NCBI GenBank assembly: GCA_963675595.2 | Contig: CAXXLZ010000002.1 | Coordinates: 2,112,001-2,176,000, forward strand | From: Thermodesulfobacteriota bacterium | GTDB lineage: Bacteria > Desulfobacterota > Desulfarculia > JACQYL01 | DNA: 64,000 nt | Direction of reading: 5' to 3' | Part shown: positions 1 to 7,205 of the stretch, piece by piece | Layout of the letters: each line of letters begins with the position of its first letter | How positions within the stretch are numbered: position 1 is the stretch's first letter | Translations under genes and position numbers: made by a program | Notes under the pieces: generated by a model | Told to the model about the DNA's origin: nothing | Seen by the model: only the letters and a program-made list of their open reading frames with translations | Database searches by the model: none

Positions 1-755
1 GTAAGGGCGGCGGTGACCCCCAACGCCGAATTGGTGAGGGCGAGCCCGGCCACGTACAAAACGCCGTGCACCACGATCCTTCCTCTCCCGGTCCCCGACC
101 GGCCGCCGAAGTAGGCGGCCGTAATGGGAATCAACGGGTACACGCAGGGAGTCAGGTTCAGGGCCACGCCACCCAGAAAGATGCCCAGTAGTGTCCACAG
201 GGCGGCCAACCCGGTGAAGGAACCGGGGGACAATGGCTGCCCGGCGCCTACCGAAGCCTGCGGCTTCGAACTCGCCGTGGGACGCCCCAGTCCTTGCCAC
301 TCGGGGAATCCCTGAGGATAGCGATATACGTTGCGGTAGCCCAATTGGACGGCCACCCGGGCCGCCGAGTCGCTGCGGACTCAGGTGAGCCCCGCTCAGT
401 AGAACACAAGGGTCCGATCCCGATCTCCTCCCAAGTAGGCTTTCAGTTCCTCTTTCTTCGTGAAACGGGCCCACCAGGTGGGTTCCATGGGGAAGTTGCC
501 CGCACCTTGGATATGTCCGGTTCGGTATTCCCATTCCTGACGCGTATCCACCAGAAGGAGTCCCTGACGGTCCTTGCGGTAGCGTTCCCAGAGTTCATCA
601 GCGTTCATCAGCCGGTAGCCGCCGGCTCGGGCTTCGGCTTCAACGTCCTCCCAAGTTGCCTGTTGTGGAGCCACGGGCCTGCTCGTGTACCACGCGATAC
701 CGGCGGCGGCCGACATGCAAAGAAGTACTATTATGATCTTATTTATCTTTTTCAT
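1..755 (-). CDS. Rhodanese (UxxxxU)-DsbD/CcdA membrane-domain fusion selenoprotein, runs off window start
   Basis: ORF 396-776 stops at TGA after LVFY. The frame continues U-AGLT-U-VRSDSAARVAVQLGYRNVYRYPQGFPEW (rhodanese C-terminal half), then LNLTPCVYPLIP (DsbD motif), with no other stop. TGAs at 396-398 and 381-383; hairpin at 348-366; GGAGA RBS before ATG 755. Confidence 0.85.
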
Positions 756-873
756 GAAGGCATCTCCACTTCGCACCGGTTCCCCGCACCTCCCTTTACT
801 CCGATGCGGAGGATCCCGGGCCGCCTCTAATTCGCCGTCTCGATAGTCGTTCGTGTCGCCCGACCGGACGTTG

Positions 874-2010
874 TCAGCGGCTTCATGTACCGCCCGCGGG
901 ACTGCACGCGGGCGCTTCCGTCGGTTTGTTCCCGAGTTCGGATACCGGTTTGTTTCCGGGTTCCGCCGCCGGTCGCTCGGACGGGGACATGGAATCGTAA
1001 AGCAGCTTGATCCGTGTGGCTCCCACGGTCATGGCCACCATCATGGCTTCCTTCAGTTCCTCTTCACCGGCTCCCAATTCCCTCGCGACCGCAAGGCAAT
1101 AGTTGGCTCATGGATCGCAGCCGGCGGCCAGGGATGCTCCGAGGGCGATCAAGTGCTTGGTCTTCCGGTCCAGAACACCGTCCGCGTAAACGCCTTCAAA
1201 AAAATCCCCATATTTGTCCAATGGATTCATGTTCGACCCCTTGTCCCTCAAAGAATAAACCGGCGGCGACTCCGCCCGGATCAACACGCCCTTGGTCACG
1301 GGGGAGGAATCGAAACCCGTTTCGGACACCAACTCCACATGCGTGAATCCCGACGCCTGAATCATTTCCAGGAAAACCTTTCCCGGTATCGCGCCGCCCA
1401 GTCAATGGTGCCATTGAGATATCCGGCCGGCCTTGTCGGAAGGCGCCTCGCCCACCAGTACCTGATCCGCGATCATCAGGCGCCCTCCGGGCCTCAGGAC
1501 CCGACGTACCTCGCGAAGCGCCGCCTTCTTATCCCCGATCAGGTTGAACACGCCGTTGGAAAGCACTACGTGGAAACTGCGGTCCGGAAAGGGCAGGTCC
1601 GTGGCGGACCCTTCCAGGAAAGTCACGTTTCCAAACCCGGTCAGGTGCCGGTTCCGCTCCGCTCGGTGCAGCATCTCGGGCGTCATGTCCACTCCGGCGA
1701 CACGCCCCTCGGAACCCGTCATGAAGGCGGCCGCCAGCGAATCCACGCCTCCGCCGCAGCCGATGTCCAGCACGGTTTCGCCTTTTTCCACCGGACCCAG
1801 AAAGAAGGGATTCCCCACACCGCAATAAGACGCTGAGACCTCGTCCGGGAGATTGCGAAGGAAATCGGGGTCATATCCCAACAATTCGAGTCCCTTCCTC
1901 CCCGTGGGATATCGAAACATGCCCTCGGGACTTCCGGCCGCCTTCGAATACCTGGCCCGGATTCCCTCATGAATTTTTTCCAGATCGTCGCCGGATAGTG
2001 TTAGTTCCAC
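874..2010 (-). CDS. ArsM-like SAM methyltransferase fused to an AhpD/CMD domain, 3 predicted Sec (378 aa)
   Basis: ORFs 1402-2010, 1108-1365 and 883-1077 share one frame and are separated only by TGA: QWHH-U-LGGA (ArsM W-x-x-C-x-x-GA position), GCDP-U-ANYC (AhpD CxxC) and GGT-U-SR-stop. SAM motif LDIGCGGG and YCGVGNP are present. A hairpin follows each TGA. Confidence 0.8.
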
Positions 2011-2158: not shown

Positions 2159-3543
2159 CATAAGCGCTAACTTAAGCCTTTTGTTTTGGTGAGGTTTATG
2201 GTACCGTTGCCGCCAAAGGAGGTGGCAATGGAGCGTCTCGTTTTTTCCGAGGAAATGGAAGACTGGGAAGTTCTCCAGGGTTTTCTTCCCGATGGCTGGC
2301 AATCCAAAGCAAGGGAACTTGGTGCCGTTGTCAGATACCGTAAGTTCGTGGACGCCGAAGGTCTGTTGCGAACGCTTCTGATCCATCTGGCGGAAGGTTG
2401 CTCACTTCGGCTGACGGCGGCCAAAGCCAGGTTCGGCAACATTACGTCGATTTCCGACGTAGCTCTCCTAAAACGACTGAATAAATGCGGAGAGTGGTTT
2501 CGGTGGATGGCCTTAGGGGTCATGGAGAAATGGTTTCGAAAGCTGCCCGCCGTTGTTTTTGGAGAGAATTCACGCATCAGGTTGATCGATGCCTCCACCA
2601 TTCAAGAACCTGGAAGTACCGGAACGACTTGGAGGGTCCATTATTCCATACAATTGCCTTCGCTGCGCTGCGACGAAGTCTATGTAACAGACCCCAAGAT
2701 CGGAGAATCCTTCACCAATTTCAAAGTCCATGGCGGTGAACTTCTTGTAGCGGATAGAGCCTATTGCACACCAAGAGGAATTCACCATGTCATAGACAAC
2801 GGCGGCGACGTCCTGGTTCGAATGAAACACCGTGTCGCCATGGTGGACAAGCAAGGGGAACGATTCCAATTACTCCCTCATCTAAGGACGTTACGTGTAA
2901 ATAAGCTTGGCGACTGGGATGCATTCGTTCCATTTGAACAACGCTTGGTTGCAGGTAGAATCTGTGCCATCAAGAAGAGCAAAGACGCCACTGAAAAAGC
3001 TCGTAAAGCGATAGAAAAAGAGGCGAGGAAAAAAGGTCGCCAAGTTACTCCGGACACCCTCGAAGCGGCGGCCTACATATTTGTTTTCACAACATTGGGC
3101 CGTGAAATCTCGCCCTCTCAGGTCCTCGAGATGTACCGAGGTCGATGGCAAATTGAACTCGCTTTCAAGCGTCTAAAGTCCATTCTCGGTTTAGGCCATC
3201 TTAGAAAGACCGACATCGAAGGAGCCAAGGCCTGGATCCATGGGAAACTACTGGTGGCTTTCTTAGTGGAGGCCATGATCGCCGCAGGCGAATCTTTTTT
3301 TCCCTGGGGATACCCACTCCAAAAAGAACCACCGTAGAAATCGATGCTTCTGGAGAGAGACCATGTTTATGTTACACCTGCTGAAACAAGCCGTGAACCC
3401 TAAACTCGGCTTGGCCGAATGCATTGCCGGCTGGGATAACATATCTTTTTATTTGCGAGAACCGCCAAGGAAACGAGCACTTCAGCGGCTGATTCCTCAG
3501 ACGGAAAGAAGCATAGCAAACAATGCTTAAGTTAGCGCTTATG
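2159..3543 (+). mobile_element. IS4-family insertion sequence, copy 1 (1385 bp)
   Basis: 19-bp terminal IR CATAAGCGCTAACTTAAGC; 11-bp target duplication CCCCCTGCCCC (2148-2158 and 3544-3554). Confidence 0.95.
2228..3337 (+). CDS. IS4-family DDE transposase
   Basis: IDAS, ADRAY and YRGRWQIELAFKRLK (YREK signature); AAGGAGG RBS before ATG 2228. Confidence 0.93.
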   Translation: MERLVFSEEMEDWEVLQGFLPDGWQSKARELGAVVRYRKFVDAEGLLRTLLIHLAEGCSLRLTAAKARFGNITSISDVALLKRLNKCGEWFRWMALGVMEKWFRKLPAVVFGENSRIRLIDASTIQEPGSTGTTWRVHYSIQLPSLRCDEVYVTDPKIGESFTNFKVHGGELLVADRAYCTPRGIHHVIDNGGDVLVRMKHRVAMVDKQGERFQLLPHLRTLRVNKLGDWDAFVPFEQRLVAGRICAIKKSKDATEKARKAIEKEARKKGRQVTPDTLEAAAYIFVFTTLGREISPSQVLEMYRGRWQIELAFKRLKSILGLGHLRKTDIEGAKAWIHGKLLVAFLVEAMIAAGESFFPWGYPLQKEPP

Positions 3544-3555
3544 CCCCCTGCCCCC

Positions 3556-4940
3556 CATAAGCGCTAACTTAAGCCTTTTGTTTTGGTGAGGTTTATGGTA
3601 CCGTTGCCGCCAAAGGAGGTGGCAATGGAGCGTCTCGTTTTTTCCGAGGAAATGGAAGACTGGGAAGTTCTCCAGGGTTTTCTTCCCGATGGCTGGCAAT
3701 CCAAAGCAAGGGAACTTGGTGCCGTTGTCAGATACCGTAAGTTCGTGGACGCCGAAGGTCTGTTGCGAACGCTTCTGATCCATCTGGCGGAAGGTTGCTC
3801 ACTTCGGCTGACGGCGGCCAAAGCCAGGTTCGGCAACATTACGTCGATTTCCGACGTAGCTCTCCTAAAACGACTGAATAAATGCGGAGAGTGGTTTCGG
3901 TGGATGGCCTTAGGGGTCATGGAGAAATGGTTTCGAAAGCTGCCCGCCGTTGTTTTTGGAGAGAATTCACGCATCAGGTTGATCGATGCCTCCACCATTC
4001 AAGAACCTGGAAGTACCGGAACGACTTGGAGGGTCCATTATTCCATACAATTGCCTTCGCTGCGCTGCGACGAAGTCTATGTAACAGACCCCAAGATCGG
4101 AGAATCCTTCACCAATTTCAAAGTCCATGGCGGTGAACTTCTTGTAGCGGATAGAGCCTATTGCACACCAAGAGGAATTCACCATGTCATAGACAACGGC
4201 GGCGACGTCCTGGTTCGAATGAAACACCGTGTCGCCATGGTGGACAAGCAAGGGGAACGATTCCAATTACTCCCTCATCTAAGGACGTTACGTGTAAATA
4301 AGCTTGGCGACTGGGATGCATTCGTTCCATTTGAACAACGCTTGGTTGCAGGTAGAATCTGTGCCATCAAGAAGAGCAAAGACGCCACTGAAAAAGCTCG
4401 TAAAGCGATAGAAAAAGAGGCGAGGAAAAAAGGTCGCCAAGTTACTCCGGACACCCTCGAAGCGGCGGCCTACATATTTGTTTTCACAACATTGGGCCGT
4501 GAAATCTCGCCCTCTCAGGTCCTCGAGATGTACCGAGGTCGATGGCAAATTGAACTCGCTTTCAAGCGTCTAAAGTCCATTCTCGGTTTAGGCCATCTTA
4601 GAAAGACCGACATCGAAGGAGCCAAGGCCTGGATCCATGGGAAACTACTGGTGGCTTTCTTAGTGGAGGCCATGATCGCCGCAGGCGAATCTTTTTTTCC
4701 CTGGGGATACCCACTCCAAAAAGAACCACCGTAGAAATCGATGCTTCTGGAGAGAGACCATGTTTATGTTACACCTGCTGAAACAAGCCGTGAACCCTAA
4801 ACTCGGCTTGGCCGAATGCATTGCCGGCTGGGATAACATATCTTTTTATTTGCGAGAACCGCCAAGGAAACGAGCACTTCAGCGGCTGATTCCTCAGACG
4901 GAAAGAAGCATAGCAAACAATGCTTAAGTTAGCGCTTATG
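3556..4940 (+). mobile_element. IS4-family insertion sequence, copy 2 (appears identical to copy 1)
   Basis: Same 19-bp IRs; 11-bp target duplication CCCCTGCCCCC (3545-3555 and 4941-4951). Confidence 0.95.
3625..4734 (+). CDS. IS4-family DDE transposase
   Basis: Protein identical to copy 1. Confidence 0.93.
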   Translation: MERLVFSEEMEDWEVLQGFLPDGWQSKARELGAVVRYRKFVDAEGLLRTLLIHLAEGCSLRLTAAKARFGNITSISDVALLKRLNKCGEWFRWMALGVMEKWFRKLPAVVFGENSRIRLIDASTIQEPGSTGTTWRVHYSIQLPSLRCDEVYVTDPKIGESFTNFKVHGGELLVADRAYCTPRGIHHVIDNGGDVLVRMKHRVAMVDKQGERFQLLPHLRTLRVNKLGDWDAFVPFEQRLVAGRICAIKKSKDATEKARKAIEKEARKKGRQVTPDTLEAAAYIFVFTTLGREISPSQVLEMYRGRWQIELAFKRLKSILGLGHLRKTDIEGAKAWIHGKLLVAFLVEAMIAAGESFFPWGYPLQKEPP

Positions 4941-5081: not shown

Positions 5082-5390
5082 TTATCCTTCCATGGCTTCC
5101 GTCACCGCTGCGGAGAGAGCCCCCATTTCGGGAATGTGGTCGAAGGCAAGGCGTCCGTTGATCACCAGCGATGGAACCGGAGGTTTGTCTCCGCATAGCC
5201 GCTTGAGTTCCTCCTGCCTGGCGAGGCCCTCCCGTTCCCCCACGTCCACCACCGTCCACTCCAATCGCCCCTCGGGCAACTCTTCGGCCAATTCCTCCAA
5301 AACGGCCAATGCCAAATCACACAGCATGCATCCTTTCTTCTTGGCCACGATCTCCACGAATACCCGGCGGTTTTCCAGTGCCATAATCAT
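5082..5390 (-). CDS. Thioredoxin/glutaredoxin-like small protein (CxxC)
   Basis: GCMLC motif and VPSLVING cis-Pro motif; start at ATG 5390 or 5384. Confidence 0.75.
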   Translation of the reverse strand: MIMALENRRVFVEIVAKKKGCMLCDLALAVLEELAEELPEGRLEWTVVDVGEREGLARQEELKRLCGDKPPVPSLVINGRLAFDHIPEMGALSAAVTEAMEG

Positions 5391-5512
5391 CCCTACGGAC
5401 AATAACGCCTCTCCGAGGTTGCGTTCTCCCCCATGAGGCCTGGTTTCAAACGGTTCCCGCACATTGCGCCTCGCCGGAAGGCACGCTTTCCCCTCCCGGC
5501 GAGCTGCGGATG

Positions 5513-5767
5513 TCAGTCTTCCTCTTCCACCTTGATCCTTACGTCCGCGTAGCGGGTTCTTTTCTTGATCTGAGTGATCAGTTTTTCGGGATCCGTCTGC
5601 GAAGGATCATATTTCACTTTCGCACGTTTAAACACGGTACTGGTCTCGTACTCCAATACACCGGGTGACTCATCCAGAGCCACTTTGACCATGCCTTCTC
5701 AAGTCAGTCACTCCATCCTGGGGATGTAGAACGCCACTTCATTCACGATCGTATTTTCTCCCGACAC
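5513..5767 (-). CDS. Heavy-metal-associated (CopZ/MerP-like) selenoprotein, MxUxxU (84 aa); missing from the ORF track
   Basis: AGGAGG RBS plus GTG. Translation: ...FYIPRME-U-LT-U-EGMVKVALDESPGVLEYETSTVFKRAKVKYDPSQTDPEKLITQIKK. TGAs at 5708 and 5699 replace both Cys of MxCxxC; hairpin at 5665-5683. Confidence 0.88.
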
Positions 5768-5859
5768 GTCCGCCTCCTTTCCACGGCTTCGCATCCTGAT
5801 TCGGGGCGGTCCCCAAAAGGTCAAGCCTTCGCACATCAAGCCGTTTCGAACCCTGATGC

Positions 5860-6210
5860 TCAGAAGTTGAAGACCTGGGCTTCGGCCGCCAGCTCGATGA
5901 GATGCGGTCCTCCGTCCAGCACCATATTGGAGTAGAATTTGGCCTCGTCCACCTGACGAGCGCGGGCGCAGGGAATTCAGACTCCCACGGGGATCTCGTG
6001 CTCCACCAGGTGGGGGAAATAATCGTTGGGACAATCTCCCGTTTTGGTTTTTTCGTTGAAATCCCGGGTGGAATCCGCCCAAAGCGTTCCGTCGTCGATG
6101 AAGAACAGATTGACCGCATGCCCGGCCGCATGGGCCACTTTGGCCAGCTGGAAACAACGCGTAGCCGAGTCCACCTCGTCCCTGCTCAATACAAACAGAA
6201 ATTTCGCCAA
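5860..6210 (-). CDS. DsrE/F-like sulfur-relay selenoprotein, UxxC (116 aa)
   Basis: VNLFFIDDG DsrE motif; readthrough of TGA 5977 gives GV-U-IP-C-ARARQV...QVFNF; hairpin CTCGTC-AGGTG-GACGAG starts 16 nt downstream. Confidence 0.88.
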
Positions 6211-6264: not shown

Positions 6265-6738
6265 TCAATCGCTTGGAATGGAAGGAATCTTCCCCTCCGT
6301 TGCGAGCTTCTTGATCAAGAAACGGACTCCCGACCCGGAAACGCCCAGGTCTTCGGCAAGGCGAGCCGGATCGGCGCTTCCCTTGCTGCGCACCAAGGCG
6401 AGAACCTCCTCCTCCAGCTCTTCCAGCCAGTCCTCGAAGAGCACCAAAACTTCGGGCTCCGTAACCGCCTTCAATTGTTCGGATCGGCTCACCTTCTCCA
6501 CCAAACTTCGGCACATCTGCGTTGGATCGACACCTTCGTCCATGCATTCGGCCAGTCAACGGTGCACCATGCCGGCGGTCTTTTCATCGGCTCGCTCCCC
6601 GAAGAGTTCGACGACGAACCTGAGACGCTCCTCTTCTTCCATGAGCGCCAGACGTTTTCCGAGCAGGGAGGAAAGCAGGGGAAGCGCGTCCCGGTCTTCC
6701 ATGGAGTCCACCATCCGTTCCAAAGTCTCCAAATTCAT
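6265..6738 (-). CDS. Uncharacterised selenoprotein (UxxxC) with C-terminal winged-helix-like domain (157 aa)
   Basis: ORFs 6556-6738 and 6265-6543 are in frame across TGA 6556: GMVHR-U-LAE-C-MDEGVDPTQMC; hairpin at 6523-6542 with AGGTG loop. Confidence 0.75.
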
Positions 6739-6758: not shown

Positions 6759-7175
6759 TTAGAAGATTTTGGCCGCTTTCCCGAGATCTTCGGCGAGGGA
6801 GGAAAGGCTCGTCAGGATTTCCCCCACACGTTCATCGGCCGACCGGTAATAAATGAAGGGGCCCCGCCGCTCCACTTGCACCAGAAAGGAACGTTTCAGT
6901 TCTTTGAGATGATGCGAAACCAGGGGTTGGGAGAGGCCGAGTTCCTCCACGATTTTCGACACGCTCTTTTCCTTGCGGCTCACACATAGAAGAATTCTCA
7001 GGCGATTCTCATCGGAAAAGCACTTGGACAGGAAGGCGACACCCTGAAGGTTCAGTGAATCCACGAGCCGCGTTGCGGAATCGACGGGCATGGGCGTCTG
7101 ATTTCGAGACGGAGGTTCAAGCATGCGGGTCCGTTCGCAATGAGGGTTCAACGTAATCAACATATCAATATACAT
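6759..7175 (-). CDS. ArsR/SmtB-family transcriptional regulator (true start probably downstream, near 7124 or 7091)
   Basis: FSDENRLRIL...LSQPLVSHHLKELK...ERRGPFIYY HTH signature. Confidence 0.9.
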   Translation of the reverse strand: MYIDMLITLNPHCERTRMLEPPSRNQTPMPVDSATRLVDSLNLQGVAFLSKCFSDENRLRILLCVSRKEKSVSKIVEELGLSQPLVSHHLKELKRSFLVQVERRGPFIYYRSADERVGEILTSLSSLAEDLGKAAKIF

Positions 7176-7205
7176 TTATATATTGATCCCGCATGTCCTT
7201 GTCAA
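7164..7205 (-). promoter_or_regulatory. Sigma70 promoter overlapped by a 9-6-9 palindrome (candidate ArsR operator)
   Basis: TTGACA (7205-7200)-N17-TATATA; ATCAATATA-N6-TATATTGAT at 7164-7187. Confidence 0.65.

Follow-up and report, generated by a model that had tools for sequence, protein, structure and literature searches.

Repressors of the ArsR/SmtB type that sense through thiols, such as BigR, SqrR and the As(III)-sensing ArsR, carry the sensing cysteines in the repressor itself. SdpR is an ArsR-family repressor that is controlled by another protein, as in the SdpR/SdpI pair, and not by a ligand site of its own, and ArsD, a small protein encoded next to arsR, binds metalloid with three cysteines. 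Here we describe a pair of adjacent genes in a 64,000-nucleotide (nt) stretch of DNA from a Thermodesulfobacteriota bacterium (GenBank assembly GCA_963675595.2, contig CAXXLZ010000002.1, positions 2,112,001 to 2,176,000; hereafter the window), in which a gene for an ArsR/SmtB-type regulator, tsoR, is followed on the same strand by a gene with a single in-frame TGA. From its sequence we judge, with a probability of about 0.9 or more, that this second gene is tsoA, a member of an already described family, and that it encodes a selenoprotein.

The Tso locus resembles the BigR, SqrR and As(III)-ArsR systems in that an ArsR-type repressor would act on an AT-rich inverted repeat and the signal would be read by cysteine chemistry, and the operons of those repressors contain rhodanese, DsrE or TauE-type genes, as do the operons associated with Tso. 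It differs from them in that TsoR has no conserved cysteine and the candidate sensing residues, one selenocysteine (Sec, U) and two cysteines, are carried by a separate protein. The match of TsoR to the BigR model is weak (40.9 bits versus a cut-off of 155), and TsoR scores 50.5 bits on the SdpR model, for which the cut-off is 100. Neither SdpI nor ArsD is related to TsoA in sequence, and no membership in either family is claimed for TsoA.

tsoA and its selenocysteine codon

The protein obtained by reading through the TGA matches positions 1-143 of the 144 in the NCBIfam model NF045695, 'LULAXC motif selenoprotein TsoA', with 195.2 bits (E 6.4e-58), more than the 170 bits of the curated cut-off, and a search of the whole genome with the TsoA model returned a score of 188.8 bits with one TGA inside the match. 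The window copy thus exceeds the equivalog cut-off over the whole model and has its Sec codon at the motif position, and its cluster is like that of the family, with TsoR upstream and TsoB and TsoC on the same strand. The range of the family, which is Desulfobacterota by record names, fits the window copy as well, although this copy differs in a six-residue C-terminal tail, PSIPSD, that extends past the family consensus. An earlier note on this DNA, made from the letters alone, had proposed a candidate new selenoprotein family; this proposal does not hold, as the family has already been named. A review of 2026 (PMC13188914) tabulates TsoA (LULAxC), TsoB, TsoC, TsoX and TsoY, derives 'Tso' from 'three selenoprotein operon' and names Haft & Tolstoy 2025 (mSystems 10:e0141724) as the source of the family; that paper also stands among the references of PMC13326102. 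No experiment on TsoA is reported in the accessible parts of this literature on Tso selenoproteins.

The gene is composed of two open reading frames (ORFs), 6738..6556 (60 aa) and 6543..6265 (92 aa), which share a common frame with the TGA at 6558-6556 as its sole break. The read-through product contains ...GMVHR-U61-LAE-C65-MDEGVDPTQM-C76..., and the peptide across Sec61 is MVHR-U-LAECMDEGVDPTQMCR, which bears out the description in the earlier note of two ORFs joined in frame across one TGA to give a UxxxC motif. The gene starts 20 nt behind tsoR, and a Shine-Dalgarno-like sequence is found ahead of Met1 in most of its relatives.

To place this codon among relatives, we used a phylum sample of 401 genomes, 41 of which had a TsoA match (full-length in 36 of these), and a scan of one genome per species that returned 298 TsoA relatives. 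The best 80 loci of the scan, which hold 81 copies and are nearly all from Desulfobacterota by record names, were examined. All full-length matches in the phylum sample (41/41) contain exactly one TGA, and the five stop-free matches in that sample cover only the C-terminal part of TsoA. The TGA occupies an identical alignment column in 30 of 30 fetched loci and stands at the Sec position in all 81 further copies, comprising 79 of 79 motif matches together with loci L056 and L097, which were read individually. In the 30-sequence alignment the residues from the TGA to the next Met are invariant. The genome encodes SelB (404.2 bits versus a cut-off of 242.25) and a tRNA-Sec (77 bits versus 47).

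In bacteria, a selenocysteine insertion sequence (SECIS) is a hairpin that follows shortly after the UGA and has a G in its apical loop. The window hairpin starts 13 nt after the UGA, at exactly the coordinates given in the earlier note, and consists of TGGACGA (6542-6536), the loop AGGTG (6535-6531) and TCGATCCA (6530-6523), with one bulged A. Its loop, AGGUG in the RNA, was correctly said to be identical to that in the DsrE-like selenoprotein gene directly downstream, whose hairpin reads CUCGUC-AGGUG-GACGAG. The 20-nt hairpin of tsoA is almost frozen in relatives, synonymous sites included, and its upper helix is 98.6% paired across the 30 loci. One pair, 26:39, varies: it is AU in 19 and GC in 11 of the 30 loci, with none unpaired, and AT in 47 and GC in 32 of the 79 further motif matches, in which the loop is AGGTG (75) or AGGTA (4). 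The change at this pair couples a non-synonymous Asp/Gly switch with a synonymous GAT/GAC switch, and both states of the pair are found inside one taxonomic family of the sample. When the pairing partner was slid by 1-3 columns as a control, 18-37% of positions were paired, versus 96.7% for the real structure. In a divergent relative, L119, a hairpin is found at the same offset with another stem (GGAUUC/GAAUCC) and a loop with GGUG.

Selenoproteins usually, though not necessarily, have homologues with Cys in place of Sec, and the earlier note had suggested looking for such homologues as single ORFs. A word-index protein search gave 385 matches; of the best 120, which were inspected, 118 are fragments of the C-terminal part (86-94 aa) and two are full-length, the latter with W in place of Sec. 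An exhaustive profile search gave 410 matches, of which the best 150 were considered and 29 sequences fetched; these include fragments ending or starting at the TGA and two full-length entries, again with W. The W at the Sec position is consistent with gene calls made under a code in which TGA is W. No Cys form was found among the 41 genomic matches, the 81 further copies, the best 120 of the 385 word-index matches or the 29 sequences fetched of the best 150 of the 410 profile matches. Four entries tried as Cys or Trp forms (P0006, P0007, P0125 and P0142) were rejected, as their W lies exactly at the TGA position.

Codon 61 is most likely read as Sec, since SelB and tRNA-Sec are present in the genome, the frame is kept on both sides of the TGA and the SECIS-like hairpin is conserved. 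The alternative, that the TGA is a true stop, that the halves are two small separate genes or the remains of a decayed one and that the hairpin is incidental, draws on the splitting of the halves by gene callers (the 118 fragments described above), on N-terminal fragments of 58-60 aa on record that end at the TGA and on an in-frame ATG at codon 66 in the window, but it is highly improbable given the retention of the frame and of the exact TGA position in all 41 and all 81 full-length copies, the invariant residues between the TGA and the next Met, the frozen synonymous sites and compensating pair of the hairpin, and the presence of SelB and tRNA-Sec. Gene callers begin the downstream half at codon 66, which is ATG in 17, CTG in 12 and GTG in one of the 30 loci, and thus something other than ATG in 13. 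Neither of the two findings that the earlier note had named as grounds for abandoning its reading, halves in different frames in relatives and a start of its own for the downstream ORF, is borne out, given this variation, the invariant residues that follow the TGA and a frame that is constant in every relative seen. Some observations nevertheless weigh against the assignment. The window hairpin alone is not more stable than shuffled sequences (z = -0.30; 64 of 200 shuffles fold at least equally well), and an Rfam search gave no match to a SECIS family; support for the hairpin is comparative rather than thermodynamic. The motif of the window copy is R-U-L-A-E-C, with R rather than the L of the family motif L-U-L-A-x-C as its first residue, a variant shared with L026, one of the 30 loci, and with 6 of the 79 further motif matches.

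The tso cluster and divergent relatives

The features of the window that are discussed here, together with tsoC, are collected in Table 1.

Table 1. Location of tsoA, its elements and the surrounding genes (window positions unless stated otherwise)
Feature	Position	Strand	Details
tsoA coding sequence	6738..6265	minus	157 aa + stop TGA 6267-6265; one Sec codon read through
In-frame TGA, most likely Sec61	6558-6556	minus	aligned with the TGA of relatives
SECIS-like element	6555..6508	minus	lower stem CUGGC/GCCxx plus apical hairpin 6542-6523 (UGGACGA-AGGUG-UCGAUCCA)
Invariant core V58-x2-U61-L-A-x-C65-x2-E-G-x-D-P-x2-M75-C76	6567..6511	minus	30-sequence alignment
C-terminal winged-helix-like three-helix domain (~residues 100-151)	6441..6286	minus	HTH_24, AlphaFold2 (AF2), VIA-align
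tsoR, ArsR/SmtB-type regulator	7124..6759 (ORF up to 7175)	minus	NF045707, 143.3 bits vs cut-off 115
Putative tsoR promoter/operator	7205..7162	minus	TTGACA 7205-7200, 17-nt spacer, TATATA 7182-7177; inverted repeats 7162-7187 overlapping
DsrE-like selenoprotein gene	6210..5860	minus	U78 in VGV-U-IPC, TGA 5979-5977; Pfam DsrE 62.5 bits; directly downstream of tsoA
HMA/MerP-like ORF	5794..5516	minus	two in-frame TGAs, M-E-U-L-T-U-E-G; start uncertain
Thioredoxin/glutaredoxin-like ORF, Cys form	5462..5082	minus	C-M-L-C; 'HUIPC motif thioredoxin-like (seleno)protein' 51.9 bits vs 105, sub-threshold
Two identical 383-aa IS4-family transposase ORFs	2186..3337, 3583..4734	plus	NF033592, 139.4 bits vs 115
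ArsM/AhpD (arsenite methyltransferase/AhpD-domain) selenoprotein gene	~2010..883	minus	NF041537, 513.4 bits vs 510
tsoB, N-terminal part (rhodanese/DsbD fusion)	755..3	minus	FY-U-AGLT-U; NF045694, 368.4 bits, model 2-247 of 572
tsoC	C2:2110067-2110324, outside the window	same as tsoA	143.5 and 150.9 bits vs 45; one TGA

TsoB scores below the cut-off for the whole protein because its gene runs off the start of the window, so that only part of it lies inside. In the window cluster tsoA and tsoB are about 5.5 kb apart as a result of inserted genes and two insertion sequence (IS) copies, and the cluster differs from that of the family in that DsrE-like, HMA-like and thioredoxin-like genes, the two IS4-family transposase copies and the ArsM/AhpD selenoprotein gene lie between the two. 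The IS4-family copies stand in tandem, about 1.4 kb apart, between the thioredoxin-like and ArsM/AhpD genes, and split the tso cluster. The TGAs of the ArsM/AhpD gene are at codon 203 (U-L-G-G) and codon 301 (C-D-P-U). The HMA/MerP-like ORF is probably a double selenoprotein: it has U-x-x-U in place of the usual CxxC and gave sub-threshold matches to NF041115, 'metal-binding (seleno)protein' (39 bits versus 95), and to MerP and CopZ models. Just below tsoC, on contig C2 of the genome, the ORF listing of locus L003 contains a second ArsR-like frame on the same strand (~838..1150, minus; ...HETRLMLVDALREKDLCVGELAERLGVGQPTVSKHL...).

In 22 of 29 relatives tsoB directly follows tsoA within the fetched flank. 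One genome (G051) has four copies of tsoA, arranged as tsoR-tsoA-tsoR-tsoA-tsoB-tsoC at each of two loci, L114 (C11) and L115 (C29); L115 also has two tsoC-like genes. In another genome, a sub-threshold tsoR/tsoA pair occurs twice, each time ahead of DsrE and TauE/SafE genes, and the fetched region contains neither tsoB nor tsoC; in the first of these copies a CGGC-domain gene separates DsrE from TauE/SafE. At L116, from another genus, DsrE-like genes follow tsoA-like genes.

The profile search also revealed Met-rich relatives of TsoA that have no Sec and carry runs of Met where TsoA has its U-x3-C segment. Examples of these (P0148, P0164 and P0179) score 54-80 bits on the TsoA model. They share with TsoA the segments (G/F)-N-P-M-E-M-C and A-T-P-E-x-x-x-L-F-E-E-W and a C-terminal winged-helix-like domain, but have neither Sec nor U-x3-C and fall below the TsoA cut-off. 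Neither Pfam nor NCBIfam has a dedicated family for the Met-rich relatives, and one of them, in a Candidatus Aminicenantes metagenome-assembled genome, is labelled 'MarR family transcriptional regulator'. The Protein Atlas clusters of a Sec-less relative cover several phyla and contain hypothetical proteins, with low shares of FeoC, HTH_24 and MarR labels. Two of three stop-free relatives within the phylum follow ArsR genes for which TsoR is the best model (77.7 and 88.5 bits).

Two further loci hold divergent forms. At L120 (G203:C90), the frame of a Met-rich relative contains a TGA (locus position 1600; M-M-E-K-U-M-Q-M-C), which lies four residues ahead of the conserved Cys and is followed after about 18 nt by a hairpin with an AGGU loop. 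The locus may represent a distinct branch with Sec; alternatively, translation may end at the TGA and a new start may lie immediately past it. At L119 (G326:C109; 124..381 and 1420..1980, minus strand), a divergent TsoA-like gene that scores 93.4 bits on the TsoA model has Y-U-I-N-E-C as its motif and Ser for C76, and is flanked by an ArsR-type gene and a gene for the TsoX selenoprotein (HSGNPN-U; 131.1 bits versus 52).

TsoR, TsoA and their possible roles

TsoR passes the cut-off of NF045707, 'ArsR/SmtB-type metalloregulator TsoR', and its gene lies upstream of tsoA on the same strand, with a gap of less than 200 nt, in 108 of 110 loci. The start of tsoR is uncertain, with the family model beginning at ORF residue 42. 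No Cys is invariant among 30 TsoR sequences and 13 of them have no Cys at all, in agreement with the earlier observation that the ArsR adjacent to tsoA has no obvious CxC site. The sole invariant His in these sequences is a pair in the recognition helix. At the site positions known from Cys-based ArsR/SmtB sensors, TsoR has no conserved ligand Cys. A 20-bp inverted repeat, ATAT(A/C)AA-N6-TT(T/G/A)ATAT, is found upstream of tsoR in 55 of 107 loci, versus 7 matches in 334,353 nt of other locus sequence, and the palindrome at 7164-7187 that had been picked out from the sequence alone overlaps this recurring repeat. The putative minus-strand tsoR promoter is absent from the predictions of a consensus scan because the rule of the scan demands a T at the last -10 position.

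The positions of TsoA that are invariant among 30 sequences include V58, U61, L62, A63, C65, E68, G69, D71, P72, M75 and C76, followed by L98, L100, F101, W104, E109 and E111 and a few in the last domain; C76 gives way to Ser in L097, one of the 80 further loci. The invariant core around U61, C65 and C76 is a candidate Se/S ligand or redox site. An AF2 model built from the family alignment is all-helical (predicted local distance difference test score, pLDDT, 74.2; predicted template modelling score, pTM, 0.44), and is confident for residues 1-45 and 100-150, with a pLDDT of 87-91 in the C-terminal domain, which contains helices only. The Pfam model HTH_24 matches residues 106-151 with 24.1 bits versus a gathering score of 21.9. 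In VIA-align, the C-terminal domain overlays the winged helices of Z-alpha, IclR, ROK, AsnC/Lrp and AntR with Z scores of 5.6-7.5, a range (Z < 8) that is commonplace among unrelated small helical domains by the tool's own note; the overlays involve three helices with a root-mean-square deviation of 1.3-2.3 A over 50-60 residues. The match to HTH_24 and these overlays point to a winged-helix-like C-terminus, which the earlier note had recognised as resembling a winged helix-turn-helix. Structural neighbours are limited to the C-terminal 55-60 residues, and a wide structural search returned residues 94-157 alone. Foldseek against the PDB gave no match at E 0.001 or better (best E 0.14), and no match in a sequence-profile search of the PDB had an E-value below 0.2. 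No strand is present in the AF2 model, and the family consensus stops directly after the third helix, which leaves it without a wing. TsoA is acidic, with a median isoelectric point (pI) of 4.65 for the whole protein and 4.94 for the last 50 residues, versus a median pI of 8.53 for TsoR. The AF2 model and these comparisons suggest that TsoA is an acidic, all-helical protein made up of an N-terminal helical part, the U-L-A-x-C...M-C core and a short winged-helix-like C-terminal domain.

The reading of function that we favour, at somewhat less than even odds, casts TsoA as the sensing partner of a TsoR that is itself blind to ligand; the suggestion in the earlier note that TsoA may be a co-regulator with the adjacent ArsR is plausible in this light. 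TsoR would be an ArsR-type repressor without conserved Cys or another obvious set of ligands, and its binding site would be the AT-rich inverted repeat that covers the -10 region of its own gene. TsoA would capture the signal, possibly a metal or metalloid that is thiophilic or else a reactive species of sulfur or selenium, on Sec61, Cys65 and Cys76, and would then act on TsoR through its winged-helix-like domain, leading to derepression of an operon that in this genome would include the DsrE-like, HMA-like, ArsM/AhpD, TsoB and TsoC selenoprotein genes. We favour this reading because tsoR and tsoA move and are duplicated together, stand at the head of operons with different cargo and stay paired in Sec-less relatives; the absence of an invariant Cys from TsoR, the adjacency of the genes and the difference in pI between acidic TsoA and TsoR are also consistent with it. 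We more tentatively suggest that TsoR and TsoA represent a two-protein metallo- or redox regulator in which the repressor has lost its own sensing residues and a small winged-helix partner reads the signal, with Sec in Desulfobacterota and with Met-rich segments in several phyla. Several points count against a sensing role. The proposed mechanism is based on gene order, composition and missing residues only, and adjacency is just as expected of any two genes in one operon. The AF2 model is of moderate quality, with a pLDDT below 50 at residues 47-53, 58-62 and 64-66, around the Sec, and one of the three stop-free relatives within the phylum follows a TetR-type gene instead of an ArsR-type gene.

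It is also conceivable, if doubtful, that TsoA is not a regulator but a cytoplasmic carrier or chaperone, in which U61, C65 and C76 would bind a metal, metalloid or chalcogen and pass it to TsoB, a membrane protein with rhodanese/DsbD-like parts, or to TsoC, with the winged-helix-like domain serving as a docking module. The position of tsoB directly behind tsoA in most relatives fits such a role, as does the abundance of trafficking-type proteins in the cluster (DsrE-like, HMA/MerP-like with U-x-x-U, rhodanese). Met richness is frequent in metal-handling proteins, and the Met-rich relatives of TsoA, like its acidity, which would be unusual in a DNA binder, point in the same direction. However, the tsoR-tsoA pair is also found without tsoB or tsoC, ahead of DsrE, CGGC and TauE genes, it is duplicated ahead of a single tsoB-tsoC, and Sec-less relatives retain an ArsR-type neighbour.

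The primary reading of the earlier note, an autonomous DNA-binding sensor of redox state or metal that uses Sec and places its winged helix on an operator independently of TsoR, is unlikely: the HTH_24 score just above the gathering score, the overlays on DNA-binding winged helices (Z 5.6-7.5) and the K and R residues in the consensus third helix speak for it, but the protein and its last 50 residues are acidic, the consensus goes no further than the third helix and a beta wing is missing from the model, unrelated small helical domains often reach Z scores below 8, and a dedicated ArsR-type regulator adjoins tsoA in 108 of 110 loci.

As a selenoprotein discovery, the window adds nothing to what is on record, as the name, the curated model and a publication of 2025 already exist; it does provide a clean positive control in which a Sec gene, its SECIS hairpin and an operator were found from raw sequence. 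If TsoA is indeed the sensor for TsoR, the pair would be a new design of ArsR-type switch and one of the rare cases in which selenocysteine serves in regulation. If the broader proposal of a two-protein regulator also holds, TsoA and its Met-rich relatives would belong to a widespread class of uncurated regulator partners, with the Sec forms as one branch.

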